Source of the DNA: Patescibacteria group bacterium
Lineage (GTDB): Bacteria; Patescibacteriota; Minisyncoccia; Phycocordibacterales; SBAW01
DNA: 64,000 nt
Assembly (NCBI GenBank): GCA_028864875.1
Contig: JAGWLV010000001.1
Coordinates: 8,288 to 72,287 of the forward strand
Reading direction: 5' to 3'
Shown here: piece by piece, positions 24,934 through 63,043 of the stretch
How the letters are laid out: the number at the start of each line of letters is the position of its first letter
Position numbering within the stretch: position 1 is the first letter of the stretch
Notes under the pieces: model-generated
The model's input: the letters and a program-made list of their open reading frames with translations, nothing else
Told to the model about the DNA's origin: nothing
Database searches by the model: none
Made by a program: the position numbers and the translations under genes

Positions 24934-25674
24934 ATGCCCGAGCCTTTTTCTCCTACACCAAGTCCTGCTCCCGAACCTCAACCTGGAATCAACAGGTCAA
25001 TATCTTCTGTGGATCAGCCCAGAGTGTATAGAGCCGTACGAGCTGTTGGAGTGGTTAAGCCGATGTTTAATCCAACAAACCAACAGTTTGGAAATAACTT
25101 TCAAGTTACTGGGACAGCTTTTTGGCTCTCAGAGTACCGAGTTTTGATAACTTGTGCCCACGTGGTCCAGGGATTATTGCTGGGAGACGCAGTTCAGACA
25201 GGACTCCTGATGATTGGTAACATGGGTGATTATAGTAGAGCGGCCATTGCTTCCCTCGATTTAGCCCATGATTTAGCCGTTTTAAAAATTATTGATAAAC
25301 CCGATTCTTTTATAGATAGTGAAGCAAAGACAGGGGTTTCTATTTTGGAGCGCTACCCTCAAGTTGGTGAGGCTGTAGCATACGCCGGCTTTCCGCTCGG
25401 TTCTCAACTACTTAACTCAGCTCATGCCCCCACATTTTCTGATGGTGTAGTAGCAGTACAGTTGAGAGAGTCTCCTCTTAGAAAAGAAATTCAAGTTACT
25501 GGTGCTGTCGTGGGAGGCTATAGCGGAGCCCCCGTGGTTCTTAGAGAACCAGACTCGAGTCGCCTGATTGGAGTGTTGGCGCGCGGCCCAAGTTCTTCAG
25601 AGACACAAGGCAATATATTTATGGCCATTTCCTGGGAGCACGTTAAAGCCATAGCGGAGTTAGCGACCTCCTAG
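24934..25674 (+). CDS. Trypsin-like (S1 family) serine protease, low-GC gene
   Basis: Catalytic triad context TCAHVV (His), DLAVLK (Asp), GYSGAPV (Ser); GC about 48% versus about 65% in adjacent gyrA. Confidence 0.75.
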   Translation: MPEPFSPTPSPAPEPQPGINRSISSVDQPRVYRAVRAVGVVKPMFNPTNQQFGNNFQVTGTAFWLSEYRVLITCAHVVQGLLLGDAVQTGLLMIGNMGDYSRAAIASLDLAHDLAVLKIIDKPDSFIDSEAKTGVSILERYPQVGEAVAYAGFPLGSQLLNSAHAPTFSDGVVAVQLRESPLRKEIQVTGAVVGGYSGAPVVLREPDSSRLIGVLARGPSSSETQGNIFMAISWEHVKAIAELATS

Positions 25675-27630: not shown

Positions 27631-28185
27631 ATGGAAAGTTTCTTTTTGGTCCCCGGGGAGGCGCTGCGGAGCGCGGGTCTTGCCGAAGGCATGAAGGTGG
27701 CCGATTTGGGCTGCGGCGGGGGCTTTTTTGCGCGCGCGGCCGCGCGCGCGGTAGCGCCGGCGGAGGTGTGGGCTGTGGACCCCAACCGCGAAATACTCTC
27801 GCGGGTCAAGAACCTCGCCTTGGGCGAGGGGCTCCACAATGTCGAGGTGCTCTCCGGCACGCCGCAGGCGAGCAATCTCCCGGCAGGGCGGTTCGACGTT
27901 GTTATTGTGGCCAATACCCTCTTTGCCGAAGCTCCGGAGGAGCGCGGCGCGGTTGCCGGAGAGGCACACCGTTTGCTCCGCCGTGGCGGCAAAGTGGTCG
28001 TCATAGACTGGAGCGGTAGCCACGGCGGGCTCGGGCCCCACCCAAACCACATTGTGGAGGAAAAGGTGGCCCGCGCGCTCTTTGAGCGCGCGGGCTTCGG
28101 CTGGGAGCGCGCGCTCCCCGCGGGCTCCTACCACTGGGGTGCGCTATTTAAGAAAGGCGGGCATAGCATTAAGAAGGTACAATAG
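27631..28185 (+). CDS. Class I SAM-dependent methyltransferase
   Basis: Motif I VADLGCGGGFFA, Rossmann-fold MTase layout (Methyltransf_11/25-like). Confidence 0.8.
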   Translation: MESFFLVPGEALRSAGLAEGMKVADLGCGGGFFARAAARAVAPAEVWAVDPNREILSRVKNLALGEGLHNVEVLSGTPQASNLPAGRFDVVIVANTLFAEAPEERGAVAGEAHRLLRRGGKVVVIDWSGSHGGLGPHPNHIVEEKVARALFERAGFGWERALPAGSYHWGALFKKGGHSIKKVQ

Positions 28186-28193
28186 AAAGAGCT

Positions 28194-29516
28194 ATGGGTT
28201 CGATGTCAACCTTTCAGTTGTTGGTCATAGGCGCGTTTATCATCCTCGCCATCGTGGGGGTGGGGGCCTTTGCTGTGTTTGGCGGCGCGCTCGGCGGCTC
28301 GGGCGTGGGGCCGGTAGTCGTATGGGGAACGCGCAGCCAAGACGAGATGACCACACTCATCGAGTCCCTGCGCTCGCAAAACAAGGCCTTCGAGCAGGTC
28401 ACGTACGTGGAGAAGGACCCGTCGACCTACACCAAAGAGTTGGTGAGCGCGATGGCCGCGGGCACGGGGCCGGACCTCTTTTTGATCGACCAGGAAAACT
28501 TGGGCGCGTTTGTCGACAAGGTTGGCATTATCCCGTACGGCGCGATTTCCCAAGGCACGTTTGCCAACAGTTACATCGACGAGGGTCAGGTGTTTCTTTC
28601 GCCGCAGGGTGCCTATGCGCTCCCGTTCCTCATCGACCCGATGGTCATGTACTGGAACCGCGACCTCTTTGCCCAAGCGGGGCTTGGGCAACCGCCGACT
28701 TTGTGGAGTGACTTCACCAAAGCGGACGGCATCCCGACCAAAATCAGCGCCATCGACACCTCGCAAAATGTAAAGCGCTCCGCAGTCGCAATGGGCGCGT
28801 GGGACAATGTTGCGAACGCCAAGGCGATACTCTCGACACTCTTTATGCAGTCCGGCGACCCGATTGTGGGGCGCGACTCCTCGACGGGCAACTTGATATC
28901 GGTCTTCGGCCGCACGCCGAGTGCGGCGGCGGAGAATCCGGCATCATCAGCGCTGCGCTTTTATACCGAGTTCGCCGACCCCGGCAAGTCGACCTACTCG
29001 TGGAACCGCGCGCTCCCGCTGTCGACCAACGCGTTTGTTGCGGGCGACGTGGGCGTGTACTTCGGCTTTGCGAGCGAGTATCAAAGCCTGCTGCAGCGCA
29101 ACCCCAACCTCCACTTCGGCGTTGATGTGGTGCCCCAGCTCCAAAATGCGCCGCAGATGACGTACGGCCTTTTGACCGGCGTCGCCATCTCGCGCACCGC
29201 GCACAACGTCAACGGCGCGCTCGTTATTGCGGAGGCCCTGACGGCCCAAACGGCGAGCGCGGTAGAAGCGCGCACCACGGGCTTGCCGCCCGCGCGCCGC
29301 GACGTGCAAGTGGACACCTCGGGCAATGCGGCCGCGGCGACGTTTGTGCGCTCGGCCTTGATTGCGCGCGGGTGGCTCGACCCGGACCCGGCGTCGACCA
29401 ACTCCATCTTCAAAGGCATGATAAACTCGGTCGTATCGGGCGCCTCGACTCCGGACGCCGCCGTCTCGGACGCCTCTCAAGAAATGAGCCAGCTCTTTAC
29501 TCCAAATGCTCAATAA
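28194..29516 (+). CDS. Extracellular solute-binding protein (ABC-type, family 1), membrane-anchored
   Basis: N-terminal TM anchor, MalE-like periplasmic binding-protein fold over 440 aa. Confidence 0.7.
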   Translation: MGSMSTFQLLVIGAFIILAIVGVGAFAVFGGALGGSGVGPVVVWGTRSQDEMTTLIESLRSQNKAFEQVTYVEKDPSTYTKELVSAMAAGTGPDLFLIDQENLGAFVDKVGIIPYGAISQGTFANSYIDEGQVFLSPQGAYALPFLIDPMVMYWNRDLFAQAGLGQPPTLWSDFTKADGIPTKISAIDTSQNVKRSAVAMGAWDNVANAKAILSTLFMQSGDPIVGRDSSTGNLISVFGRTPSAAAENPASSALRFYTEFADPGKSTYSWNRALPLSTNAFVAGDVGVYFGFASEYQSLLQRNPNLHFGVDVVPQLQNAPQMTYGLLTGVAISRTAHNVNGALVIAEALTAQTASAVEARTTGLPPARRDVQVDTSGNAAAATFVRSALIARGWLDPDPASTNSIFKGMINSVVSGASTPDAAVSDASQEMSQLFTPNAQ

Positions 29517-29928
29517 GTATAAACACATCGCCGCGGGCATAAGCATCGGAGCGCTCGCGCTCCTCCTTTCTCCCGCATTTACGTTTGCACAAAGCGCTCA
29601 GCCGGCAAACTGCGGCGGCGGTACCTGCTCGATTGCCAATCCGCTCAACACACTCAGTTTCTGCGGCTTGGTCAAAAATGTGTTGGGTGCGGTTATTGCG
29701 ATAGGCATCCCCATTGCAGTTATTATGCTCGTGTATGTTGGCGCACAGTTTGTGTTCGCGCAAGGGAGCCAGGATGGCATTAAAAAAGCCAGAGAAAATT
29801 TAAAGTACACCGTCATAGGCATCGCCATATTCCTCTCCGCGTGGCTCATCGCGCAAGTCATCGCCAACACGGTCAACAACCTCATGCAAGGCACAGGCGT
29901 CAACCCGTTCATCTCATCGTGTAACTAA
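29506..29928 (+). CDS. VirB2/TrbC-like pilin-type small membrane protein, paralog 1
   Basis: Signal peptide, Cys-pair motif (CGGGTCS...FCG), two hydrophobic helices; pattern typical of CPR T4SS-pilin-like proteins. Confidence 0.6.
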   Translation: MLNKYKHIAAGISIGALALLLSPAFTFAQSAQPANCGGGTCSIANPLNTLSFCGLVKNVLGAVIAIGIPIAVIMLVYVGAQFVFAQGSQDGIKKARENLKYTVIGIAIFLSAWLIAQVIANTVNNLMQGTGVNPFISSCN

Positions 29929-30273
29929 ATGTTTGGACCAGGAGACACATTCAGATCGGTCGTCACAGCCCTCGTCGGGCTCATCGACATGATTATCCCG
30001 GTCTTGACCGCGGCGGCCATCGTATTCTTTTTCTACGGACTCGCGGTCAAGTACATGAAGGCACCCACAAACAAAGAAAATTGGAACATGGTGCTCTGGA
30101 GCCTCATCGCGCTCTTCATCCTCTTCTCCATTTGGGGGATACTGCGCGTGCTGCAAAACACGTTCCTCGGCGGGGTGGGGAGCGGGGTCAACTGGGGCGG
30201 GCCGGTGCACACCTTTAGTACCCCAAGCGGCAATGCCAACAGCGGCCTGTGCCTGTTTGGCAATTGCTACTGA
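29929..30273 (+). CDS. VirB2/TrbC-like pilin-type small membrane protein, paralog 2
   Basis: Same two-helix architecture; start abuts previous stop; C-terminal Cys pair (CLFGNC). Confidence 0.55.
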   Translation: MFGPGDTFRSVVTALVGLIDMIIPVLTAAAIVFFFYGLAVKYMKAPTNKENWNMVLWSLIALFILFSIWGILRVLQNTFLGGVGSGVNWGGPVHTFSTPSGNANSGLCLFGNCY

Positions 30274-30326
30274 TATCCACACAGGGGCCTTCGCGGGGCA
30301 TATTTAGAAGTACAATTACTATATAT

Positions 30327-30689
30327 ATGAAAAAGCTTTCCATACTCTCGGCCATACTTTTGGCTGCGCCGGCGGTTGCCTTTGCCCAAACGCCGACTGA
30401 CCTGCGGTCGCTCATCGCCTTTGTGGGCAATATTCTTAATGCACTCATTCCGCTTTTGATCGCATTGACCCTTGTTGTTTTTTTCTACGGCCTCTACAAA
30501 TATGCGCTAAATCCTGGTGGTGGTGGCGGTAAAGAGGGGGGCGGCAACACCAAGCTCCTTTGGGGTGGGCTCGTCGCGCTCTTCATTATGGTGTCGGTGT
30601 GGGGTATCATCCGCATCGCGCAGAACACCTTCGGGGTCAACAACTCCGCTCCCATCACCATCCCGCAAGTCCCGCAGGCAGTGCACTAA
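30327..30689 (+). CDS. VirB2/TrbC-like pilin-type small membrane protein, paralog 3
   Basis: Signal peptide MKKLSILSAILLAAPAVAFA, helix, Gly-rich loop, second helix. Confidence 0.6.
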   Translation: MKKLSILSAILLAAPAVAFAQTPTDLRSLIAFVGNILNALIPLLIALTLVVFFYGLYKYALNPGGGGGKEGGGNTKLLWGGLVALFIMVSVWGIIRIAQNTFGVNNSAPITIPQVPQAVH

Positions 30690-30692
30690 CAC

Positions 30693-30959
30693 GTGTCCAA
30701 CAATTCGTTCATAGGTACGGTGCTCGGCAACTTTGTCTCATACATCGTCAATCCGGCGCTCTTGTTGCTGTTTGCTGCGGCATTTCTTGTATTTGTGTAC
30801 GGATTGGTAAAGTTCATCGCCAAGACCAACTTCAGCGGCCAGGTTGATACGGACGGCAAAAAACAGATTTGGTGGGGGATAGCGGGGATGTTTATTATGG
30901 TCTCCGCGTGGGCCGTCATTATGCTCATCCGCAACACGATAGGACCGGGCTCGTTTTAA
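30693..30959 (+). CDS. VirB2/TrbC-like pilin-type small membrane protein, paralog 4
   Basis: Two hydrophobic helices, same spacing as paralogs 1-3. Confidence 0.55.
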   Translation: MSNNSFIGTVLGNFVSYIVNPALLLLFAAAFLVFVYGLVKFIAKTNFSGQVDTDGKKQIWWGIAGMFIMVSAWAVIMLIRNTIGPGSF

Positions 30960-31026
30960 ATAAAAGAAAAAGGGCGCCCTCAACTTTTTAAGTAGTGGGC
31001 GCCCTTGTTGCCTGCGCGGTGCTGTG

Positions 31027-31326
31027 TCAGTAGCGCCGCGGCGGCCGTTCATAGTAGTGCAACCACCGGTCGATCATGCCCGGCTCGGTCTTTGGAGTAG
31101 AGACATACCGTGGGGTGGAGTAGGACCCCGGGCGGGTATGGACCCCGCTCGTGGGATAGTACGCGCTGACGAAGGGCGTACCAAGGACCGCGATACCCGC
31201 GACAATCACCAAAGCCCAGGTGATCCGGCCGAGCGACTTTTCCGCTTGGATAGCGGCGTCGTCAATCACTTCCGAGGGGACTTTGCGGGTTGGCTTCTCT
31301 TTGGGGTCGTTGATCGTATCAGCCAT
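31027..31326 (-). CDS. Small membrane-anchored protein, hypothetical
   Basis: 99 aa, one TM; start overlaps stop of upstream gene (operon). Confidence 0.5.
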   Translation of the reverse strand: MADTINDPKEKPTRKVPSEVIDDAAIQAEKSLGRITWALVIVAGIAVLGTPFVSAYYPTSGVHTRPGSYSTPRYVSTPKTEPGMIDRWLHYYERPPRRY

Positions 31327-32552
31327 TATTGACCTCCGGGAGATTGCGGTTGTGCGCCGCCGCGGAGTGCTTGCGCGAGCCTTTCAACAAAGCTCGCGAT
31401 GCCCGCCGCAGTGGTGTTAAGGTTCGAGCTTGCCCGCTCGCCGAGCTCGAACTCGAAGGTCTCGCGGTTTGTCTTGCCAACGTTCGCCATGGCGATGTTG
31501 ACCGCCTCGCCGTGAGTAACCTTCGACCCTTCGGTAGTGCCGCTCTTCTCGATATCCTTGGCGGTTTCGAGGATTTGCGTCATTGCCACCTTTCCTTCGG
31601 TGGCTTTGTTGTACTCCTCCGAAGGAGTCGGGACCCCGAAAGGCACTGTCTCGGCAATGACGCCGTACTGTGCTTCGAAGGGGAGCCCTTTGGTGTCGCG
31701 GTGTCGCGGGTCCGACTCGCCGCTTTCAGTCACGCCCTCGAGTGCCAAGATGAGCGTATCTTCGAGTTTGGAGAGCGTCTCGGCTTGCTGGACATTCTCG
31801 AGCGGAGTGTCGAGAATTTCGTCGTTCATTGCGTTTTGCACGATGTTGGTCGCCGCCTGCTCGATAGACTTGATGTCGTGGCTTGCGTTGACCAACAGGA
31901 GCGGCGGGAAGACCCGCATACGCAGCATCGGGTGCTCGAATGTCACCCGCACCTTGTCGCTTGTCCGGAAAGTTGCCGGACGGGACACAATGCTGCTGCG
32001 TATGGTCAAATCATCAGTCTTCGGGTCCAAAGTTTCCAATGGACCAAAGGTGATGTTGAGGCCCTGCAAGTAGACATGCACCCGCCGGGTGAAGAGCTGC
32101 ACCGCCTTTGCACCCGTGAGTTGAGGCACAGCGATGATCCAATTTACTCTCTGCGCCGCCCAAAAGACGGCCGGCGCGGCGAGTGTGGCGACGAGCACGC
32201 CCTGGTACCACCACGGTATGTAGTGGCCGGAGAGACGTGCGATGGTGTCGAACACAAAGACCACCGCGTACGTGAGAGTGGACACGGGCAGGACGAGACC
32301 CACTATAAAGAAGAGGACCCGTCCCCACGTGTTGCCCACTTTGCCGCTGATGCGGTAGCCGTACGCTGCGCCGATGTGGCGCAATTGACGGGCCGACATC
32401 AACTCAAGCGGCGAACGCCGCTTACCTTCGGTTCCGGGCAGCGATGAGCCGGAGCCCTTGCTTGAGTCCGACCACAAAGCCGCCACCGCTCCCGCCAGTA
32501 TGGCGAAGACGATTGTCAGCCAGAACCAGTTGTCCGCCAAGAATTTCATCAC
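31326..32552 (-). CDS. Membrane protein with SPFH/band-7-like central region (tentative)
   Basis: N-terminal TM helices, then beta-rich segment resembling SPFH/stomatin core, acidic C-terminus. Confidence 0.45.
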   Translation of the reverse strand: MMKFLADNWFWLTIVFAILAGAVAALWSDSSKGSGSSLPGTEGKRRSPLELMSARQLRHIGAAYGYRISGKVGNTWGRVLFFIVGLVLPVSTLTYAVVFVFDTIARLSGHYIPWWYQGVLVATLAAPAVFWAAQRVNWIIAVPQLTGAKAVQLFTRRVHVYLQGLNITFGPLETLDPKTDDLTIRSSIVSRPATFRTSDKVRVTFEHPMLRMRVFPPLLLVNASHDIKSIEQAATNIVQNAMNDEILDTPLENVQQAETLSKLEDTLILALEGVTESGESDPRHRDTKGLPFEAQYGVIAETVPFGVPTPSEEYNKATEGKVAMTQILETAKDIEKSGTTEGSKVTHGEAVNIAMANVGKTNRETFEFELGERASSNLNTTAAGIASFVERLAQALRGGAQPQSPGGQ

Positions 32553-32636: not shown

Positions 32637-32726
32637 GTGCCGGGGGAGCGACTCGAACGCTCACGAGGATTTTTAGTGCCTCCCGGGATTTTAAGTCCCG
32701 TATGTCTACCAATTCCATCACCCCGG
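32637..32726 (-). tRNA. tRNA-Leu (anticodon TAA)
   Basis: Long variable arm, acceptor GCCGGGG/CCCCGGC, anticodon loop CTTAAAA. Confidence 0.85.
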
Positions 32727-32737
32727 CATTTTTTCTT

Positions 32738-32809
32738 GAGGCCACGGAGGGATTCGCACCCTCGCATAACGGTTTTGCAGACCGTCGCGTTGCTTCTTCG
32801 CCACGTGGC
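32738..32809 (-). tRNA. tRNA-Cys (anticodon GCA)
   Basis: Acceptor GGCCACG/CGTGGCC with discriminator U, anticodon loop CTGCAAA. Confidence 0.8.
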
Positions 32810-32811
32810 CA

Positions 32812-32884
32812 GTCCGCCCAGTAGGACTCGAACCTACAACCAACTGCTTAAGAGGCAGCTGCTCTACCAATTGAGCTATAGGCG
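32812..32884 (-). tRNA. tRNA-Lys (anticodon CTT)
   Basis: D-arm GCTCAATTGGTAGAGC, anticodon loop CTCTTAA, T-loop TTCGAGT. Confidence 0.8.
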
Positions 32885-32912
32885 GATATACAATAAAGTA
32901 CCATAGCACGAA

Positions 32913-32994
32913 TGCCCTCGTGGCGGAATTGGTAGACGCGCGTGGCTTAGGACCACGTAGAGCAATCTGTGGAGGTTCGAGTCCTCCCGAGGGC
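32913..32994 (+). tRNA. tRNA-Leu (anticodon TAG)
   Basis: Long variable arm, acceptor GCCCTCG/CGAGGGC, anticodon loop CTTAGGA. Confidence 0.85.
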
Positions 32995-32995
32995 A

Positions 32996-33304
32996 CTAAG
33001 AAGTAAGTTCATCTAACCGCTGGCGGTTTTTTTCGCCGCGGTCGAGCACAAACTCCGTGTGCGAGGGCGGCATCCCTTTGACCCGCTTTTTGTGGTAGAG
33101 GATAAAGTCCCGCCCGCGGCGGTTGAGGAACTCTATCGCACGCTCCTCGTGCGCTTCGGGGAAGACGGTGACAAGCACGGTCGCTTTGGTGCCCGCGTCG
33201 TTGAGCCGCACACCGGTGACGGTTATCATCGATTGGCGGTTCGTTTCTTGGTTGATGAACTCCGCCGCGGACTCATGCAGTGCTTGAATGTGGCGCTCTC
33301 TCAT
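32996..33304 (-). CDS. rbfA: Ribosome-binding factor A
   Basis: RbfA KH-like fold pattern, conserved context downstream of infB. Confidence 0.75.
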   Translation of the reverse strand: MRERHIQALHESAAEFINQETNRQSMITVTGVRLNDAGTKATVLVTVFPEAHEERAIEFLNRRGRDFILYHKKRVKGMPPSHTEFVLDRGEKNRQRLDELTS

Positions 33305-36128: not shown

Positions 36129-36941
36129 ATGGACATAGAGAAGCTGACTAAACATCAGATAGTGCTTCTCACTCTGCTGGTCAGCTTTGTGACCTCTATA
36201 GCGACCGGCATAGTGACCGTCGCGCTCATAAACCAGGTGCCTCCCCAGGTGCGCCAGACCATCAATCAAATCGTCGAGCACACGGTCGAGCAGGTTGCGC
36301 AAGCGCCGGCGGCTGTCGTTTCCTCTGCAACCGGCGGCACCATTACAAAACAGACCACCGTCGTTGTCAAAGATGACGACCAGGTCGCGCTCTCGATTGC
36401 GCAGGCGCAAAAGGGGATAGTGCGCATCGTGAGCACCAATGACCCCCAGACGCTCCTTGCGCGCGGCATCATCATCGACAAACAGGGCACCGTGCTCTCC
36501 GACCGCGGAGTGCTCGAGCCGATGGGCACACTCCAGTTCGAAGCGTATCTCCCCGACGGCAAGTTGGTACCCGCCGTCATGCGCGTCCCGCAGGGGACGA
36601 GCACCATCGCGGTCCTCGATCTTTCTATTGCATCAAGTTCCGCGGCGAGTATTGTACCTATTGCCCTTGCCGATTCCGGTAAGCTTGCGCTCGGCTCGAG
36701 CGTCATACGCATCGGCGGCAGCGGCGGAGACACCGTGGGCGTGGGTGTCATCGCAAAAATTCCGTCCGCGATGTCGGACGCTCATCGCGACCTCATCGAG
36801 AGCACGGTAACGTCCTCTACACCGGGTTCGGTCATCATCACGCTCTTCGGCGATGCGGTCGGGCTCACCACCGGCGACTCCTCCTCCTTGGGCAGCGACT
36901 TCTACACGGTAGCGAAAGTTCCTCCGACCAAGAATCAATAA
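36129..36941 (+). CDS. Membrane-anchored trypsin-like (S1C-type) domain protein, possibly catalytically inactive
   Basis: N-terminal TM, HtrA-like beta-barrel pattern but His position replaced (LSDRGVL); GGSGGDT at Ser position. Confidence 0.45.
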
Positions 36942-39843: not shown

Positions 39844-40791
39844 ATGAGACGCCGAGTGGCGCTGTGGTACTTTGCGATTCCTATCGTGTGCTTGCCGCTT
39901 TTTGCGACGGCGCAAGGGCTCGTGCCCTGTAGCGGGCTCAACTGCCGCCTGTGCGACCTGGCCGCGCTCGCTCAAAACATCATCAACTTCCTCATCGGGC
40001 TCTCGATCCCCATCGTGGCGTGCCTGTTTGCCTACGCGGGCTTTTTGTATGCGACCTCGGCCGCAAGCCCCGCCAATATCGACACCGCCAAAAACATCTT
40101 CAAGCAGGTGCTCTTCGGCTTTCTCTTTGTGCTGGGCTGCTGGCTCATCATCCAGACTGTTCTCAAAGTCGCGCTTAACTCAAGCTACAACAACTGGAAC
40201 ACCATTCAGTGCAACGACAACCGCCCGATGCAATCCCAACCGAGCGACCTCCTGTCGCAAGTGAGCCCGGTCCAGGCGCCGATTGAAGTGTCTCCCACGC
40301 CCGGATATCTAGCGCAACCGGGCGGACCCCAGCTAGTTGCGCCCGCCGGTGGCGGTTGCGATTCCTATCTTGGGGTGTGTTGGGACGCCAATAACAATGT
40401 AGTGGATGCAAAAAGCGGTTCAATCGCCAACGCCGCATCGCTCTACTATGGGACAAATACTTCTGCTGGTCCCGATAACGGAAATCTTGCCTGTGCTTGG
40501 GCGGTCAATAATGTGCTTCAGAGCGCGGGGGTAGCTCCCATAGACGGTGCAAGCGTCTCCGGTATGGAACAGGCACTTGAAAACGGTCGCGGCACACCCA
40601 TTGATACCACAAGCGCACAGCCCGGTGATATCATAGTGTGGAAAAGCGACACAGTGAGCCACGTAGGCATCTGTCAAAATGCCGGGTGCAGCAGCGCCAT
40701 TTCAAACTCTAGTGCAAATGCATCTTTTACTAACGTAAGTGGGTCGACTCTTATGGGAGTCCCCGGACGTGTGTATCACGTCAACAAATAA
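39844..40791 (+). CDS. Fusion protein: VirB2/TrbC-like pilin-type N-terminal module + C-terminal CHAP-domain peptidoglycan hydrolase
   Basis: N-terminal two-helix module with Cys motifs like the 29.5-31 kb paralogs; C-terminal CHAP Cys (LACAWAVNNVL) and His (VSHVGIC); GC falls from about 62% to about 50% near 40250. Confidence 0.65.
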   Translation: MRRRVALWYFAIPIVCLPLFATAQGLVPCSGLNCRLCDLAALAQNIINFLIGLSIPIVACLFAYAGFLYATSAASPANIDTAKNIFKQVLFGFLFVLGCWLIIQTVLKVALNSSYNNWNTIQCNDNRPMQSQPSDLLSQVSPVQAPIEVSPTPGYLAQPGGPQLVAPAGGGCDSYLGVCWDANNNVVDAKSGSIANAASLYYGTNTSAGPDNGNLACAWAVNNVLQSAGVAPIDGASVSGMEQALENGRGTPIDTTSAQPGDIIVWKSDTVSHVGICQNAGCSSAISNSSANASFTNVSGSTLMGVPGRVYHVNK

Positions 40792-55903: not shown

Positions 55904-55978
<75 letters not shown>

Positions 55979-56009
55979 ACACATGACAAGTCAGGTGACT
56001 ATGACGCGT

Positions 56010-56095
56010 CTATATTTTTCAACGTATTTTTAGCGTTCGGTTCGAGACCATGACGCGTCATGTGTCTCAGTCTCGAACCGCAAAAGAAAAATTAC
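56010..56095. repeat. Palindromic att-like site (ggttcgagac-catgacgcgtcatg-tgtctc..cgaacc) with duplicated TGACGCGTC motif
   Basis: Imperfect inverted repeat around a central CATGACGCGTCATG palindrome, adjacent to the serine recombinase gene 3' end. Confidence 0.45.
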
Positions 56096-56118
56096 CCGGC
56101 GAGGTGATTTTTCTTTGG

Positions 56119-57411
56119 CTACTCCATCGTCACTTTCTTGTCTTTCAGGAATAACTTGCTCTGCAAGCATCCAAGCAATTCCCGTTTCTCTACCAGGGTT
56201 CCTTCCCTGAGCAGGTACTTCGTGTAATTCCGAACGTCCACGTCTATCTCGACTTTGTCCTGCTTGTGCCCGAGTACTCCTGACTGAAATTTGTTGAACC
56301 GCCGTATTTCTTCTTCGATCCGTGTCCGTACTCCCAACTCATCCAAATTTACCGTATCCATCAATCCAATTAGTTCATCAATCAGGCTCGGCTCGTTGAT
56401 CGGTGGATTCTTGCAATCGATATTCCGAGCCTTTGTGCAGAAGTAATATACATGGCGATTCACACCGCCACTCTTGAGCTTCTTGAATTTTTCGTCAGCT
56501 GATATACCCGAGCCGCAGTAGCCGCATCGCACGAGCTTGGTGAAGGCGAACTCCTTGCTCTCGGTTTTGGGTATGAAATTTTCGTTGAGCGTCATCTGTA
56601 CCTTCTCATACAGCTGTTTGTCGATGATTGGCGTATGCTTGCCGGTGTACCATTGACCACCCCCGACCGGGTATTCAAATTCACCCGAGTAGAAGGGGTT
56701 CCGCAGAATGACGTAGACATTCGCGAGCACGAGCGGTTTTCCTCCCGTTGTTTTGAAGTCAATCTCTCGGAGCCATCGGTATACTTTCCGTCCGCTCCAC
56801 TGTTCGTGCGCTACCTTCTCGAACATCTGTTTGATCACAGGCGCGCGCTTTGGGTCGATCCGGCACTGACATTTCTTGTCGACATGCTTTTCATTGAGAT
56901 ACCCAGTCGGGGCAGGGCCGGGCCTCCAACCCATCTCGCATCGTGTTCTCAGCCCGCGCTTCACGTTTACCGCCTTGTTGTCGTTTTCGAGCTTCGCCTG
57001 CGAACCCAGAATCATTAGTAGGAATTTTTCGTTCGGATTGTTTGTGAATCTCTGTCCGTATGTACGGATTTCATGGAGTAACTTTTGGTCCATCAGGTCC
57101 ACGACTGACCCCAGGTCACCGGCATTGCGACTCAGGCGATCTGGTGCCCACGTGAGTATTGCGTTGAACTTCTTCGACCGGATATCCTCCAACATTTGGT
57201 TGTAGACCGGACGTTGGCCGACCTCTTTAGATGAGTGGGCCTCACGCTTAATCTCGACAATATGCAAACACTCTCGCTCGGCTAGCGCCTGCATTTCTTT
57301 CACCTGGCTCTCGATTGATAATGCTTGCTTATCTTCCGCCTCAGTACTTTTGCGTGCATAGAGGCAGTACCGTAAGGCCTCCTGTGGTTGTGTTTTTTCC
57401 ATACACCACAA
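56119..57411 (-). CDS. Large serine recombinase (phage-integrase type)
   Basis: Resolvase catalytic domain YARKSTEAE...SIESQ, recombinase domain, C-terminal zinc ribbon CGYCG...YYFC; 430 aa; AT-rich codon usage. Confidence 0.9.
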   Translation of the reverse strand: MWCMEKTQPQEALRYCLYARKSTEAEDKQALSIESQVKEMQALAERECLHIVEIKREAHSSKEVGQRPVYNQMLEDIRSKKFNAILTWAPDRLSRNAGDLGSVVDLMDQKLLHEIRTYGQRFTNNPNEKFLLMILGSQAKLENDNKAVNVKRGLRTRCEMGWRPGPAPTGYLNEKHVDKKCQCRIDPKRAPVIKQMFEKVAHEQWSGRKVYRWLREIDFKTTGGKPLVLANVYVILRNPFYSGEFEYPVGGGQWYTGKHTPIIDKQLYEKVQMTLNENFIPKTESKEFAFTKLVRCGYCGSGISADEKFKKLKSGGVNRHVYYFCTKARNIDCKNPPINEPSLIDELIGLMDTVNLDELGVRTRIEEEIRRFNKFQSGVLGHKQDKVEIDVDVRNYTKYLLREGTLVEKRELLGCLQSKLFLKDKKVTME

Positions 57412-57927
57412 GGAATGACGCCACCCTCCTGAGGAGTCCAGGACTCCTCAGGAGGTGGAAGTAGATAACATTTGACTCCTCAAGGAAGCCCTATATACTT
57501 GGGGTATGAGTCTACCGATCCCTAAAGAGCCGACCGACGTCAAAGATTGGATCCACCGGATTGAAGGAATGGGAGGTAAGTCTGGTGAGATCAATTGGGA
57601 TTCTCTGAACGTTTGGTACGGGAACAAATTGCCACAATACTTGTGGAATGAATGGAAGGACTCACTCAAACCCTCAGGAGGGTGAGCTCCGCCTCAACTC
57701 GCGCTTGCTTAAGGCGCTTCACAAATATTGCTCGTTCATTGGTATGAATGGACTTCTTCATACCTATAAGCCTGTATTCCGTATTGGGATATTCCAAAGT
57801 GGAATATCCCATGCTATGCTTGAAATGGCCCCGTTAGGGCACTGTTGGTAACTCCGCTTCGCAAGGCCTTGAAACTAAGTTAGGAAACACAAAGTCAGTC
57901 TTTATTAGCTCATATTTAGTAAGTGCT

Positions 57928-58479
57928 ATGGACACAGAAGTAAAACCCAAGAAGAAGTTTTATAAGCGCTGGTGGTTCTGGGTCGGTGCCGTTCTTGTGC
58001 TGTTCGTGATTATCGGCATGAGCGGCAATTCAACACCTACCACGAGCGTTCCGGCTCCTAACGAAAGCGCTGGTACCGCCTCAGCGCAAACTCAAGCCGC
58101 GCCTGAGCAAAAGTCGGTGCCTGCCCCAACAGAGTCCCAATCAGCTCCTGCCCCCTCGCAGCCGATCAGTAAGCCTGCACCGGCTCCTGCCGCCATGCAG
58201 ACCCTGCTCGATATCTCCGGCAGCGGCAGCAAGACGACTGAGTCGTTCACGGCTGCCGGCGCGTGGAATCTCATCTGGAGCTACGACTGCTCTAACTTCG
58301 GCAGCAAAGGCAACTTCCAGGTATTTATCTACGACGGCAACGGTAACATGTCGTTCGACAACTCAGGTGTGAACCAACTTGGCGCTTCCGGATCAGATAC
58401 CGACTACTATCACGTGGGTGGCACCTACTACCTCGAGGTCAACTCCGAGTGTAGCTGGCATGTCACCGTGAAAGGCTAG
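57928..58479 (+). CDS. Membrane-anchored secreted protein with Pro/Ala-rich linker and C-terminal beta domain, hypothetical
   Basis: N-terminal Lys-rich tail and TM; architecture like prophage-encoded surface or exclusion proteins (DUF4352-like, tentative). Confidence 0.45.
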   Translation: MDTEVKPKKKFYKRWWFWVGAVLVLFVIIGMSGNSTPTTSVPAPNESAGTASAQTQAAPEQKSVPAPTESQSAPAPSQPISKPAPAPAAMQTLLDISGSGSKTTESFTAAGAWNLIWSYDCSNFGSKGNFQVFIYDGNGNMSFDNSGVNQLGASGSDTDYYHVGGTYYLEVNSECSWHVTVKG

Positions 58480-58533
58480 TGTAGACAACTCGCTTCGCAA
58501 TACCTCCGTTCTAAGCTGGAATGGAGGTGTTGC

Positions 58534-58740
58534 ATGTCCATACTGTCACCACAAAGCGCTTGCGAACTTCGTCGGATCATCAAAGAGTCGACCGGTCGCG
58601 ACATCTCGCAGGGTGAGGCCTACGCCATCTGGCACTACCTCATCAAACTTCTCCAGCTCTTGTGGCGCGTAGAAACACGCAAAGAGATACCGCCTCCGCC
58701 TCATCAGCTCAGCCTATTTCACTCTAGCAAGAAGCCTTAG
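58534..58740 (+). CDS. Hypothetical small protein (68 aa)
   Basis: ORF only. Confidence 0.3.
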   Translation: MSILSPQSACELRRIIKESTGRDISQGEAYAIWHYLIKLLQLLWRVETRKEIPPPPHQLSLFHSSKKP

Positions 58741-58754
58741 AACTTTCTGCTGCA

Positions 58755-59648
58755 CTACAACGACTTCGAGTACGCGTCCCAGTCAATGTCTCCGTTCGGC
58801 TTTTTGAAGTACTCAAGGATTGCGGCCCGTTGCGCTCGCTCTTTGATCTCCGCCTCTTCGCGCTCCTTGCGTTCCTGCTCTTGTTGGTACAGGGCAATGT
58901 CATCTCTAATAGCCTGTAGACGCATGTAGTTATTGTTGCGTAGTCCTTCGGGCAACATATCAATTACCTGGCGCACGTCATCAGGCGAAAGCCGGTCCAA
59001 CTTCGGCCCCGCAGCGTCACGCTTCTCTTTGATGCGCTGGGCATAATCGAGCCAGAGCTTTTGGCTTCGTAGATTGCCACCTCGAGCTGAGGTGTAGATC
59101 TCGCCAAGTACGTCACCGGTCTTGAAGATGATCCAGTCTTCTCGGAGCGCGGCGACACGTTGCCCGAAGTCTGCACGTTGTGCCCAGGCATCGAGCAATC
59201 GTAGGCTCGGAACGCCGTACATCTTGCAGAACTGCTCGCGCGTTTGAACGCCGCGCCAGGAGCGCTCTTCGGGCGTGAGGGCGCTCCAAAGCACGAACTG
59301 CTCATACGCTTCGGCATCAGAGAGTATCTCTGGCACCGGGTGCATAGAGGCGGGTTCCGACCGTTCAGGAGCTTTCTTGTAAGGAGCTACGTTGTGCTCA
59401 AGGTAGTACCTGATAAGACGGGAGTCGCCCTCGCTGATCTTCTTGAGGAACGCCGCCGATACACGGTCGTCGGTCGTATCTTTGCCGGAGCGCCGGGCCG
59501 CGTCCGCCTTCTTGTGGAAGTCGAGGTCGCTCTTGTAGTGGCGATCGTAGAACATGCGGGACACACCCGCTCGCTTGCAGGCGACCGTAATGGTGTGTCC
59601 TTCGGCGAGGGCACTGAGAAGTACCGATACCTGATCATGCTTGTGCAT
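58755..59648 (-). CDS. HTH-domain protein resembling phage terminase small subunit / DNA-binding regulator
   Basis: N-terminal HTH ALAEGHTITVACKRAGVSRMFYDRHYKSD, second HTH-like region, Glu/Arg-rich C-terminal coiled coil; 14-nt overlap with MTase gene. Confidence 0.45.
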   Translation of the reverse strand: MHKHDQVSVLLSALAEGHTITVACKRAGVSRMFYDRHYKSDLDFHKKADAARRSGKDTTDDRVSAAFLKKISEGDSRLIRYYLEHNVAPYKKAPERSEPASMHPVPEILSDAEAYEQFVLWSALTPEERSWRGVQTREQFCKMYGVPSLRLLDAWAQRADFGQRVAALREDWIIFKTGDVLGEIYTSARGGNLRSQKLWLDYAQRIKEKRDAAGPKLDRLSPDDVRQVIDMLPEGLRNNNYMRLQAIRDDIALYQQEQERKEREEAEIKERAQRAAILEYFKKPNGDIDWDAYSKSL

Positions 59649-60498
59649 GGATCTTTACGCGCTTCTTACCAGAGAACTTTTCCCAGCGATTGAGGATGAC
59701 CTCGGCGTATGTTGGGACCTTCTCCATGAGGAAGCAGCGCCTGCCGAGTGTGTTGGCAGCGATGAGCGTCGATCCACTCCCGCCGAAGGGCTCAATGATG
59801 AGCTGCCCGCGTTTGGTGAGCGTCTTGACGTAGGGCAAGAGAATTTCGATCGGCTTCACGCCATAGATGATCGCTTGCCCAGACGACTTCTCATCAGCGG
59901 CATTGAACTCGATGAAGTCCGTTGGACAGTACTTCTTGTTCTTGCCGTAGTTCTCCCAATGGGAACCTTTGCCTTGGATCGCGAAGAGTGCGGTCTCGTA
60001 CTGGTTCTCGTACAGCCCATCCTCGGGCTCAAGATTGAGGCCACTGTGCTCCTCGCTCGTGCCTACCATCGCAATGTCGTGTTTTGAAAACAAGACATTC
60101 TTGCCGGCATAGCCCTGATTCCTCGTGGGTAGGTGCCAGACGATCATGTTGCGTACCTTCCAACCCTGCTTCTCGATGACGTCCCACTGCTCGCGGATGT
60201 TGCGCCAGTTTTCGTAGGAGATGATGGAGAAGTCCCTGTTGGCAACCCTAGCAACATTACCCATCCACTTTTCAACGAAGTCCGGCGGCAGTTCCTCGGT
60301 CTCGAGGTATCGGCGATTTCTTTTTGCACCGAAGCCGACGGTGGGGTTGCCGTTGCGCGTTTTGCCCTTCAGGTAACTGAGCCGGTACGGCATGTCAGTC
60401 ATGCACATGTCCGCTTTCTCATCACCCATGAGCAGAAGCACGTCGGCTTCGGCGGTTGAGTCGCCGCACATGAGCCGCGACCCGTCGAGGTCGTACAC
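59635..60498 (-). CDS. Beta-class DNA amino-methyltransferase (N6-A or N4-C), orphan
   Basis: Motif IV TDMPY (DPPY variant) precedes motif I EPFGGSGST, the beta-class order; ParB-MTase-like N-terminus; GTG start. Confidence 0.8.
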   Translation of the reverse strand: MYDLDGSRLMCGDSTAEADVLLLMGDEKADMCMTDMPYRLSYLKGKTRNGNPTVGFGAKRNRRYLETEELPPDFVEKWMGNVARVANRDFSIISYENWRNIREQWDVIEKQGWKVRNMIVWHLPTRNQGYAGKNVLFSKHDIAMVGTSEEHSGLNLEPEDGLYENQYETALFAIQGKGSHWENYGKNKKYCPTDFIEFNAADEKSSGQAIIYGVKPIEILLPYVKTLTKRGQLIIEPFGGSGSTLIAANTLGRRCFLMEKVPTYAEVILNRWEKFSGKKRVKIHAQA

Positions 60499-60785
60499 GT
60501 CGCCCTTCTTTACGGTGATCTGATCTATCTTGAGTTTGTCTAACTCCTTTTCGAGGTCGAACTGTTCTTCCGTTTTTTCGATCTCGAATACCGAGACAGT
60601 CAGCAGTCTAGTTTAGTATCGAAGGACCTAGAGCCGTATGGTTGGTCAGCTGTGGCGTATGGGAGTAAACTTCATTTATGAAATCCGATCCGAGAGGCTC
60701 AATCTGGCGAAAGTGGGACCTGCAGGTGCACGCACCTTTGGGTAAACTTTATGATGGGTACAAGACTTCCGACGGCTCGGATCCG

Positions 60786-61788: not shown

Positions 61789-61958
61789 CGGCCAAACAGC
61801 CCACCCCCGCTACCCCTGTGCGCACCAACCATGCCTACGGCAAGGGTCCTGTGTGGCGCGAGACCAAATCGATCATTGTGATGTGCGTCTGCGGAAACAA
61901 GTACATCAAGACCCGTCCCGGACAGAGCACCTGCATCCGCTGTCTCCACAAGCACTAA
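61789..61958 (+). CDS. Possible small zinc-ribbon protein (about 56 aa)
   Basis: GTG-start ORF ending MCVCGNKYIKTRPGQSTCIRCLHKH (CxC...CxxC); weak RBS. Confidence 0.3.
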
Positions 61959-61996
61959 GCGCCGCGGGGTTTTTGCGCCGTATACTTATATATGTG

Positions 61997-63043
61997 AAGC
62001 GCCTTCAGAGCCGCGGTTTTACTCTCGTCGAAATTCTCATCACGATTGCAATTATTGCGGTCCTCACCGGCATTATCCTCATGGTGGTCAATGGGGCCAA
62101 GGGCAAGGCCCGCGACGCCAGGCGCCTTGTGGACCTCCACTCGCTCGCGCTCGGGCTCCAAGTCTATTTCAACGAAGTGGGGCACTATCCCGTTACCGAC
62201 GGGTGGGTCAGCGAGTGCGATACGCCCACGGGCAATTGGATACCCGACAGCGGTGACTACACGTGGAATGTCAAAGACCTCCCGCAGGTCCCGCGCGACC
62301 CGCTCGCGATGGGCTGCGCCCCGGGGAGCCCGTACCACTACTCCTACATAAGCACCGACGGCAAAACGTATCAATTGAGCACGCAGCTTGAGTATCCGAC
62401 GCCGGGCATCAGCAACAGCTCCGGCCCGTACGCGTTCAACGGTTCGTACTTCCAGGCCGACACGTCGCCCGTTGCGGTGAACTTCAGCACGAATGCGCAG
62501 AATCCCACGTCACAAAATCCGATCCCGCTGACTGTGTCCTTCTCCCGCGCCGTGGTCGACTTTACCCAGGCGAGTCTCTCCGTATTGCGCGGCTACATCA
62601 GCAGCTTTACTCAAGTGCTTGCGTCGCTCTTCAATATTCAAGTTACGCCGACGGACAACGACCAGGTGGTCGTGAGCATCACGGGCGGCACGGTGCATGA
62701 TGTCAACGGCGTGGGCAACACATCGGCGCAATTTTCAATCACGTACGACTCGCTTTTGCCGCACCCCGCGCTCTCGCCAGACCCGCTCCCCGGCACCGTG
62801 CAGGGCTCTTTCCAGGTGTCGGTCAACTTTACCGTTGCGGTGATCGACTTTTCAGCCGCAGATATTTCGATACAAAACGGCTCGGTGAGCACCTTAACTG
62901 GCAGCGGCAGGGACTACACCTTCACCGTTGTGCCCTCCTCGCCGGGAGTGGTGTCGGTCTTCATACCCTCCGGCGTGACACACAGCGCCGCGGGCAACGG
63001 CAACGTCGCTTCAAACCATATAAGTACCACGTACCAACCATAG
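61997..63043 (+). CDS. Type IV prepilin-like protein with two C-terminal Ig-like repeats
   Basis: Prepilin leader MKRLQSRG|FTLVEILITIAIIAVL (cleavage/methylation motif), then two ~90-aa repeats with shared FT/VS pattern; GTG start. Confidence 0.7.
   Translation, partial: KRLQSRGFTLVEILITIAIIAVLTGIILMVVNGAKGKARDARRLVDLHSLALGLQVYFNEVGHYPVTDGWVSECDTPTGNWIPDSGDYTWNVKDLPQVPRDPLAMGCAPGSPYHYSYISTDGKTYQLSTQLEYPTPGISNSSGPYAFNGSYFQADTSPVAVNFSTNAQNPTSQNPIPLTVSFSRAVVDFTQASLSVLRGYISSFTQVLASLFNIQVTPTDNDQVVVSITGGTVHDVNGVGNTSAQFSITYDSLLPHPALSPDPLPGTVQGSFQVSVNFTVAVIDFSAADISIQNGSVSTLTGSGRDYTFTVVPSSPGVVSVFIPSGVTHSAAGNGNVASNHISTTYQP

Follow-up and report, generated by a model that had tools for sequence, protein, structure and literature searches.

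CPR/Patescibacteria receive most of their building blocks from their hosts, and how they attach to these hosts and feed on them is an open question. The only machine that has been experimentally implicated is a T4SS with an essential VirB2-like pilin array, and this evidence comes from Saccharibacteria. The window analyzed here, which is the whole 64 kb stretch of DNA under study, carries four small membrane-protein genes behind a gene for a solute-binding protein (SBP), and the question raised by this locus is whether these genes encode pilins of the same kind and what they may be doing beside an SBP. In this CPR bacterium, a member of the Paceibacteria (Adlerbacteria/Kaiserbacteria-like), the locus forms a chromosomal operon that is conserved and inherited vertically and comprises a methyltransferase gene, the SBP gene, and four pilin-like genes.

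The four genes, here called pilins A to D, lie back-to-back on the plus strand at exactly 29506-30959 and encode proteins of 88 to 140 aa, as the original prediction had it, and the membrane-anchored SBP that it placed beside the array is encoded directly upstream of A, with the SBP stop overlapping the pilin A start by 11 nt (Table 1). The listed ORF of pilin C begins at GTG 30249, and its start was moved to the downstream ATG because the orthologues and an MKKLSIL signal peptide indicate this position. More than 100 related loci carry orthologues of A-D in unchanged order, and the genes have dN/dS values of 0.12-0.26, which shows that they are real genes and not chance ORFs. A GC-rich hairpin directly past the D stop, which is a probable bidirectional terminator, separates the array from the convergent downstream genes. 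A promoter/terminator consensus scan gave counts near the shuffled expectation, and tRNAs were the sole Rfam matches in the window. An att repeat for a putative island at tRNA-Gln was also looked for, and none was found.

Table 1. Features of the methyltransferase-SBP-pilin locus and of the pilin-hydrolase locus in the window.
Feature	Position	Strand	Remarks
Class I SAM-dependent methyltransferase	27631..28185	+	Small, cytoplasmic; Methyltransf_25/11/31 matches; first gene of the module
Family-1 (sugar-type) SBP	28194..29516	+	N-terminal TM anchor; SBP_bac_8 4.3e-20 (73 bits), SBP_bac_1 4.4e-17 (63.5 bits)
Pilin A	29506-29928	+	140 aa; signal peptide, variable Cys-containing linker, conserved helical hairpin; KGI70_00255 (NCBI locus tag)
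Pilin B	29929-30273	+	114 aa; two-TM hairpin, variable C-terminal tail, without signal peptide
Pilin C	30327-30689	+	120 aa; ATG start; signal peptide, two-TM hairpin, conserved PQVP tail
Pilin D	30693-30959	+	88 aa; GTG start; shortest two-TM hairpin; last gene of the array
GC-rich hairpin	30967..31009	.	Inverted repeat I4; 20-nt arms, 3-nt loop, 85% complementarity
Pilin-domain + CHAP/NlpC-P60 peptidoglycan hydrolase fusion, KGI70_00335	39844-40791	+	ORF from GTG 39826
TM-anchored protein, about 150 aa	40795..41247	+	3' of the fusion gene; weak NF033672 match is the sole family match

According to hydropathy, each of A-D forms a two-helix membrane hairpin, which is preceded in A and C by a cleavable-looking Sec signal peptide (cleavage between …FA and Q) and consists in B and D of the two TM helices without a signal peptide. 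Charge analysis found the inter-helix loop of all four to be K/R-rich (3-4 K/R), and the hairpins are predicted to be N-out/C-out with a basic cytoplasmic loop, which is the topology of membrane-stored VirB2/TraA pilin. The short loop between the helices had been expected often to carry a Cys pair, which did not hold. In pilin A, the residues C36, C41, and C53 sit between the signal peptide and helix 1 and the fourth, C139, is at the C-terminus, and the CLFGNC of pilin B lies in its C-terminal tail and is absent as a conserved motif in the orthologues. Conservation of the pair C53 and C139 reaches 90% or more both in the A family and in a pilin-CHAP fusion family, and the pairs of the two families align with each other. 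Its occurrence is all-or-none, with both residues in 14 ORFs, neither in 44, and a single one in no ORF, which may reflect a single clade.

Pilin A matches the Pfam family PF18895 (T4SS_pilin) with 38.7 bits (E 1.1e-09; profile positions 9-71 of 71), above the gathering cut-off of 26.6 bits, and TrbC (PF04956) with 23.9 bits (E 4.9e-05; profile positions 11-96 of 98), under the gathering cut-off of 27.9 bits. PF18895 was matched by all 34 A homologues, and TrbC was found at E<0.01 in 28 of the 34 (best 8.1e-08). Taken singly, D reaches 24.6 bits on PF18895 (i-E 2.7e-05), just under the cut-off, B reaches 17.2 bits (i-E 0.0054), and C alone has no Pfam match, so that the Pfam search supported the predicted VirB2/TrbC-type homology directly for A on PF18895 and left B, C, and D each below threshold. 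These three are tied in by profile-profile comparison with hhalign, in which the probabilities are 99.4% for B-C, 98.5% for C-D, 97% for B-D, 94% for A-C, and 90% for A-D, and only 56% for A-B directly. The motif common to the array, VVFFxGL…Y – basic loop – K..i.W.L..lFi.vS.Wgi, excludes that they are generic two-TM proteins. Taken as sequence relationships, these comparisons establish homology among A-D and between them and the PF18895/TrbC families.

Pilin A shows the TrbC/VirB2 combination of a signal peptide, two hydrophobic helices, and a short basic loop, and its AF2 model (pLDDT 79) has helices at 6-26, 52-84, and 89-129; B and D have no signal peptide. In structure searches, the A-D hairpin was indistinguishable from any other helical hairpin. 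The A-family profile, run against PDB sequences, matched only NuoK (E 0.75) and no solved pilin, and a tblastn of pilin A against 72,556 plasmids gave no match. To our knowledge, no pilus of a PF18895 protein has ever been visualised, and the family name is a prediction. Weak matches of A, D, and the CHAP fusion were also found to NF045849 in NCBIfam, the Mbov_0395 family of Mycoplasma ICEs, and span nearly all of its 80-residue profile. Mbov_0395 is likewise a small two-TM pilin-like protein, from a monoderm MPF-FATA-type conjugation system; unlike it, the present proteins score 16-20 bits, far under the cut-off of 40, and the array context is not an ICE.

A fifth pilin copy fused to a CHAP hydrolase at 39.8 kb had been proposed as well, and is borne out by the protein KGI70_00335, which consists of a signal peptide, a VirB2-like hairpin, a disordered linker, and a hydrolase domain, in this order. 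Its scores are 17.7 bits on PF18895 and 25.2 bits on CHAP (cut-off 26), many of its 80 homologues carry both PF18895 and PF05257, and its first 131 residues can be aligned with the A family at 99.3% probability (E 7e-21). Within the C-terminal domain, Cys217 (ACAWAV) and His273 (SHVGIC) are invariant in 26 fusion sequences, and its AF2 model was matched by Foldseek to NlpC/P60 4xcm and Tae3 4hz9 (probability 1.0) and to Cg1735 (0.99), with marginal E-values of 2e-3. A match of the fusion model to the archaeal conjugative pilus 8dfu had an E of only 4 and was discarded as evidence. In relatives, a pilin domain is also joined to an SLT lytic transglycosylase, and SLT and CHAP are the two enzyme types of the two-domain VirB1-like hydrolases of Gram-positive T4SSs, such as TraG of pIP501 and PrgK of pCF10 (PMC12102498). 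Similar to these, KGI70_00335 is membrane-anchored and has a CHAP/NlpC-P60 domain with invariant Cys and His, and its relatives have a neighbouring SLT version, with pilin-SLT and pilin-CHAP gene pairs in locus L125. Unlike them, its anchor is a complete VirB2-like pilin domain and not a simple TM helix, SLT and CHAP are split over separate pilin fusions, and the gene is not beside virB4. A gene of 144-151 aa follows the fusion gene in loci L124, L125, and L126.

The SBP at the head of the array has its closest solved structures among sugar SBPs (PDB sequence matches 4r9f MBP1, 4qrz, 8art, and 1eu8). It is located upstream of the pilin genes in 35 of 36 genome loci, pilin-like genes are located downstream of it in 65 of 66 metagenome loci, and a methyltransferase homologue lies immediately before it, in the same orientation, in most genome loci and in 61 of 63 metagenome loci. 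Synteny is high throughout the whole region in these small genomes, which makes adjacency weaker evidence than in larger ones. The TM anchor of the SBP is conserved to the same degree as its globular part (0.51 vs 0.50) and contains a GVGxFAxFGG motif together with an invariant FQ. Genes for an ABC permease or ATPase of the SBP were found neither in the 64 kb window nor in the same operon. Inspection of the SBP N-terminus, which reads M(K)MSxFQIIV…, ruled out a class III/prepilin signal, since position -1 is not Gly and position +5 is not Glu. The module of a methyltransferase, a TM-anchored sugar-type SBP, and a pilin array appears to be new, and the link between SBP and array is unmentioned in a published survey of such arrays (PMC12102498).

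VirB2-like pilin arrays in Patescibacteria have been published previously (Wang 2023; Quiñonero-Coronel 2025), and the kind is therefore known. The survey, which counts 441 divergent VirB2-like tandem arrays in 383 assemblies with a mean identity among members of about 25% (maximum 54%), describes them as widespread among Patescibacteria, in line with the pilin expansion predicted for CPR genomes (PMC12102498), and an array of this kind is essential to Southlakia epibionticum (PMC10633639; PMC12857230). The survey defined an array as at least two genes, in tandem or with one non-pilin gene between them, with a VirB2 HMM i-E<0.001 and more than 50% profile coverage (PMC12102498). By this definition, A (1.1e-09) and D (2.7e-05) qualify, and between them lie B (0.0054) and C (no match), so only A and D would be called and the present array would be under-detected; by profile-profile comparison, all four qualify as array members, and their mutual identity of 28-46% agrees with the low identity of the published arrays.

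Similar to the published arrays, such as SEML1_0006-0019 of Southlakia epibionticum ML1, the present array consists of tandem divergent PF18895/TrbC-type two-helix genes in a CPR genome, with pairwise identities of about 25-45%, a chromosomal location, and no relaxase. Unlike them, it lies neither in a virB4 cluster nor close to one, it follows genes for a methyltransferase and a sugar-type SBP, and it comprises four fixed orthologous classes. The likeness to TrbC of RP4 and VirB2 of the Ti plasmid covers the long signal peptide with an Ala-x-Ala-type cleavage site, the two hydrophobic helices with a basic loop in N-out/C-out orientation, sub-threshold to significant profile matches, and hairpin ends that are possibly tied. 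However, A of the window remains under the family threshold, no virB3 or virB4 is adjacent, the host is a monoderm, and there are four classes in place of one major pilin. TrbC and VirB2 are reportedly cyclised through a peptide bond, unlike which the conserved Cys pair here is a candidate staple.

VirB4/VirB11-type ATPases were looked for and not found: VirB4, VirD4, VirB6, and VirB11 are all missing from the 64 kb window, virB3, virB4, and virB6 are not adjacent to the array, and no Walker-A protein of at least 450 aa occurs within 6-10 kb of the array in about 115 related loci. The array can therefore be tied to a T4SS only in trans and through the family name. Among the genomes listed in Table S1 of PMC12102498, as far as that listing goes, four of the five operon-bearing ones are VirB4-positive, and the single VirB4-negative one is an incomplete 0.5 Mb draft. 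In addition, an A-type homologue with 50% identity adjoins a T4CP-like ATPase and a Replic_Relax protein at locus L018.

Across genomes, orthologues within a class are 59-70% identical (mean 59% for pilin B and 65% for pilin C) vs 23-41% between classes. Among arrays that no contig end truncates, nearly all close with a D-class gene, and more distant lineages have 5-7 genes via extra A or C copies. The dN/dS of A-D is like that of the neighbouring SBP and methyltransferase genes (0.13-0.26 for the latter), and hypervariability between species is confined to the A N-linker and to the C-tails of B and D. Within the window, a 48-nt stretch of the pilin B gene is 71% identical to the C gene (repeat D1). 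These data demonstrate that A-D are four ancient, non-interchangeable classes in fixed order, with A first and D last, under purifying selection. As well, the class architectures differ in the signal peptide and the Cys pair, which favours distinct roles over interchangeable variants.

The explanation we consider most likely, with somewhat better than even confidence, is a heteromeric pilin-like surface assembly that is built in trans by a T4SS and has the SBP as its binding partner. A-D would be inserted by Sec/YidC, with A and C cut after …FA, and, once extracted, would polymerise to give a heteromeric pilus or stalk. A would be the major-pilin-like subunit, in which a C53-C139 disulfide staple might mimic the head-to-tail cyclisation of TrbC/VirB2, and B-D may be minor or adaptor subunits. 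Assembly would be carried out by an MPF-FATA-like T4SS encoded elsewhere in related genomes. The SBP, as a co-translated protein whose TM helix is unusually conserved, could dock on or beside the pilin assembly and bind host-derived glycans for attachment or nutrient capture, and the pilin-hydrolase fusion would open the peptidoglycan for the pilin structure.

An alternative, which the original prediction had put forward, is a recently expanding, diverging pilin family that gives antigenic or host-range variation to a surface appendage, an idea that has also been raised for arrays of Patescibacteria, with Bartonella and Anaplasma as the analogy (PMC12102498). The low paralogue identity, the A N-linker and B/D C-tails, which are exposed and hypervariable in length and sequence across species, and the larger arrays of distant lineages would agree with it. 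However, each position has its own orthologue, gene order is fixed, dN/dS is the same as in the housekeeping neighbours, and no recombination-type repeats flank the A-D genes, so that the comparison of copy number and sequence across relatives upheld variable linkers and tails but not antigenic switching; this reading is largely refuted and we regard it as very improbable. Equally remote is the explanation that A-D are unrelated small membrane proteins, holin-like or generic two-TM, and that the pilin label is an artefact of low complexity or TM composition. A-D do weakly match many unrelated TM families, and a protein of the related type is fused to a lytic enzyme, reminiscent of holin-endolysin pairs, but A exceeds the curated PF18895 cut-off over nearly the whole profile, the TrbC match recurs among its orthologues, and the motifs held in common include non-TM ones, namely the loop A-R-x-N and an NPL…CGL segment. 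A holin-endolysin or prophage origin itself was ruled out by the chromosomal, syntenic location in more than 100 loci, with no phage genes.

A rather unlikely but more serious competitor, which is an analogy-based reading, is a T4SS-independent envelope module centred on the SBP, in which the 4-5 hairpin proteins would scaffold or display the SBP or form its ligand-receiving membrane conduit. The coupling of SBP and pilin genes is near-absolute in both directions, with overlapping or closely spaced genes, neither an ABC permease/ATPase nor a T4SS ATPase is nearby in about 115 loci, the SBP anchor is as conserved as the globular domain and has Gly-rich packing motifs, and the fixed composition and order resemble those of a stoichiometric complex. 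Precedent for pilin-like proteins that serve SBPs is provided by the bindosome (Bas) of Sulfolobus solfataricus, in which small pilin-like proteins are needed for the surface function of sugar-binding proteins (PMC3047682). Similar to Bas, a sugar-binding protein is here tied to co-encoded small pilin-like membrane proteins, which is an analogy only, since the pilin-like proteins of Bas are of type IV (class III signal) and work with an ATPase and platform of PilB/PilC type, none of which the array has, and its SBPs bear prepilin signals, which the array SBP lacks. The small proteins of the array are of VirB2 type and not type IV pilin type, no bacterial precedent is known, and VirB4 occurs in most of the checkable operon-bearing genomes. 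The pilin domain on VirB1-type wall hydrolases and the T4CP-like neighbour at L018 indicate T4SS biology. Unlikely, and slightly more so, is the bolder idea that the module is an unrecognised surface organelle of Paceibacteria, a filament or stalk of 4-5 VirB2-like classes that would carry the SBP via its TM helix as a bacterial counterpart of the bindosome, possibly without canonical T4SS ATPases; if true, it would grip host glycans or harvest and channel host nutrients.

The locus shows a pilin array that, in the largest class of the CPR, the Paceibacteria, is hard-wired to a sugar-binding protein and not to a secretion ATPase. The array is made up of distinct, conserved subunits and not of variable copies, and pilin-tethered wall hydrolases accompany it. 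Surveys based on HMM thresholds likely count too few of these arrays, since two of the four genes here fall outside the published criteria. Together, these points offer a concrete model, open to testing, in which a heteromeric appendage has a defined component for ligand binding, and the SBP is a tractable soluble protein, whose ligand could show what these organisms recognise on, or take from, their hosts.

Four head-to-tail pilin-like genes (A to D) fill positions 29506-30959 on the + strand, which confirms the four consecutive genes of the original prediction, and they directly follow the gene of a TM-anchored solute-binding protein (SBP), the last 11 nt of which are shared with A. For gene C, the tabulated start was preferred to the GTG at 30249 given by the mechanical ORF. 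The window is a housekeeping stretch carrying gyrA, infB, clpB, ftsZ/ftsA, topA, relA, parB, and others, and comes from an NCBI "Patescibacteria group bacterium" MAG, the closest relatives of which are labelled Adlerbacteria, Kaiserbacteria, Nomurabacteria, and Paceibacterota. Convergent to the array, an SPFH/Band-7-like membrane protein of 408 aa (weak Pfam match) and a 99-aa ORF are encoded at 31027-32552 (-), and relatives keep two convergent genes (~330 aa and ~400 aa, with Band_7 in some) there. Between the SPFH gene and rbfA, four tRNA genes (Leu-TAA, Cys, Lys, Leu-TAG) are tightly clustered on both strands at 32637-32996.

Features of the pilin array, its operon, and the pilin-CHAP fusion
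Feature	Coordinates	Strand	Description
Methyltransferase	27631-28185	+	Small, SAM-dependent; precedes SBP
SBP	28194-29516	+	Family-1 solute-binding protein, N-terminal TM anchor
A	29506-29928	+	140 aa; KGI70_00255, within a 75.7 kb contig
B	29929-30273	+	114 aa
C	30327-30689	+	120 aa; start ATG 30327 according to orthologues and MKKLSIL signal peptide
D	30693-30959	+	88 aa
Hairpin	30967-31009		20-bp arms; between D and the convergent genes
Pilin-CHAP fusion	39844-40791	+	KGI70_00335; signal peptide, hairpin, disordered linker, C-terminal domain

The assignment to the VirB2/TrbC-like pilin family was supported, as A exceeds the curated threshold of PF18895 (T4SS_pilin; 38.7 bits against 26.6) and the classes are joined by profile-profile comparison of orthologue alignments (B-C 99.4%, C-D 98.5%, B-D 97%, A-C 94%, A-D 90%). 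On TrbC/VirB2 (PF04956), A scores 23.9 bits, below the threshold of 27.9, yet the match is near full-length. All 34 database homologues of A match PF18895, and 28 of the 34 match TrbC at E<0.01 (best 8e-08). Individually, B and D stay under the PF18895 threshold, at 17.2 and 24.6 bits, and C has no match in Pfam. The B and C genes still share a 48-nt stretch with 71% DNA identity. Weak matches to NF045849, a Mycoplasma ICE "pilin-like conjugal transfer protein" family, were obtained from A, D, and the CHAP fusion. Hydropathy and charge analysis predicted that A and C have signal peptides (…FA|Q) and that each of the four proteins has two TM helices, and the K/R-rich loop connecting the helices leads to a predicted N-out/C-out topology. 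In the AF2 model, A is a helical hairpin (pLDDT 79), a fold too simple for fold searches to discriminate. No sequence match was found between the A family and solved pilins, or between A and plasmids.

The original prediction also proposed antigenic variation, which our comparison does not support. The same classes occur in the same order across six related contigs, 36 genome loci, and 80 metagenome loci, same-position orthologues share 59-70% identity against 23-41% between different positions, and dN/dS is 0.12-0.26 in every pilin class, like that of the SBP (0.12-0.17) and the methyltransferase (0.13-0.26), with variability seen only in A's N-terminal linker and in the tails at the C-termini of B and D. 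Together, these features contradict an antigenic-variation cassette, and they fit a heteromeric assembly of distinct subunits. A fifth pilin class, a bare two-TM hairpin of 71 aa (70% conserved; hhalign against B, C, and D 92-95%), sits between the SBP and A in the close relatives L001, L002 (9765-9980), L004, L006, and L007, and is absent from the window and from the related locus L005. In more distant lineages (metagenome SBP loci L093, L099, L103, and L114), arrays reach up to seven pilin genes, such as A A C C C C D, through duplicated A-class and C-class genes, with D remaining last.

Starting from A-type pilins, an SBP homologue lies immediately upstream in 35 of 36 species-representative loci. 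Starting from the SBP (best 80 of 566 metagenomic relatives, 35-59% identity, 66 of them with enough downstream sequence), pilin-like ORFs begin ~0-110 nt past the SBP stop in 65 of 66 loci, and the methyltransferase is directly upstream of the SBP in 61 of 63. The SBP resembles sugar-binding proteins, and no ABC permease or ATPase was found near it. The TM anchor matches the globular domain in conservation and carries an invariant FQ and a GVGxFAxFGG motif, which hints at a specific intramembrane partner. No paper describing a linkage between an SBP and a pilin array was found in the literature.

The "fifth copy" of the original prediction, fused to a CHAP hydrolase, was verified, since its hairpin aligns to the A family with 99.3% probability and its C-terminal domain is hydrolase-like, with invariant Cys217 and His273 and an AF2 model matching NlpC/P60 and Tae3 amidases. 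With 80 homologues, the fusion represents a conserved family; the gene is syntenic after clpB and is always followed by that of a ~150-aa protein. In L125 (Kaiserbacteria CP064968.1, 8565-10879) and the related locus L124 (8403-10891), two pilin-domain fusions are paired, in the order PF18895 plus SLT lytic transglycosylase (278 aa), a ~190-aa gene, and PF18895 plus a CHAP-like domain. Gram-positive VirB1-like hydrolases have two activities, SLT and CHAP (PMC12102498), which are here split over two pilin anchors instead. A conserved Cys just before helix 1 and another just after helix 2 occur at aligned positions in the A family and in the fusion family. Of the 58 pilins in first position, 14 carry both of these Cys and 44 lack both, with no case of a single one, although this all-or-none pattern may be the effect of one clade. 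From this conservation, alignment, and pattern, we infer a putative disulfide staple, analogous to TrbC/VirB2 cyclisation. Two Trypsin_2 (trypsin-like) protease paralogues are also present after gyrA (24934-25674) and before clpB (36129-36941), the second being syntenic in relatives.

Elsewhere in the window, the gene at 61853-63043 encodes a protein in which a type IV prepilin N-methylation motif (N_methyl) precedes Big_12 Ig-like domains. This protein resembles a large type IV pilin-like or pseudopilin adhesin and has no relationship to the VirB2-like array. In the region 55905-60500, a tRNA-Gln is followed by a large serine recombinase (56119-57411, -) and then by an N6/N4 DNA methyltransferase (59635-60498) and unknown ORFs, and GC falls to 0.49 between 56 and 58 kb. 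The region is probably a mobile element that has integrated here; a search for an att direct repeat gave none.

We also searched for the VirB4/VirB11-type ATPases suggested by the original prediction, and no VirB4, VirD4, VirB6, or VirB11 gene was found in the 64-kb window, nor any Walker-A protein of at least 450 aa within 6-10 kb in ~115 related loci. The connection of the array to a T4SS is thus indirect. Five genomes with the operon appear in Table S1 of PMC12102498; four are VirB4-positive and the fifth, a 0.5 Mb draft, is negative, so that a T4SS can usually be supplied in trans. An A-type homologue without SBP (~50% identity, same core NPLG…CGLIKALL…SC) was found in L018 (CAVQBI010000001.1, 9638-13302), a 2.6 Mb contig labelled uncultured proteobacterium, where it adjoins a Replic_Relax protein, a T4CP-like TrwB_AAD_bind/DUF87 ATPase, and IS66/IS30 transposases. 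It could be a CPR-type pilin transferred horizontally on a mobile element, or the contig could be mislabelled.

According to previous studies, arrays of this kind are already known: Wang et al. (2023, PMC10633639) described an essential run of predicted pilins within the T4SS cluster of S. epibionticum, Quiñonero-Coronel et al. (2025, PMC12102498) counted 441 VirB2 arrays (2-11 genes; mean identity 25%), and a 2025 review highlighted such arrays (PMC12857230). Unlike the published Patescibacteria VirB2 arrays, the locus described here is separate from virB4, shows strict coupling with an SBP and a methyltransferase, and is made up of fixed orthologous classes, of which the published HMM criteria would miss two. 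The main alternative, which we regard as rather improbable, is a T4SS-independent module for SBP display or uptake, by analogy with the bindosome (PMC3047682). The most likely reading, held with moderate confidence, is that the VirB2-like subunits form a heteromeric surface assembly that a T4SS would build in trans; the SBP would serve as its ligand-binding partner, and the pilin-tethered hydrolases would open the cell wall.
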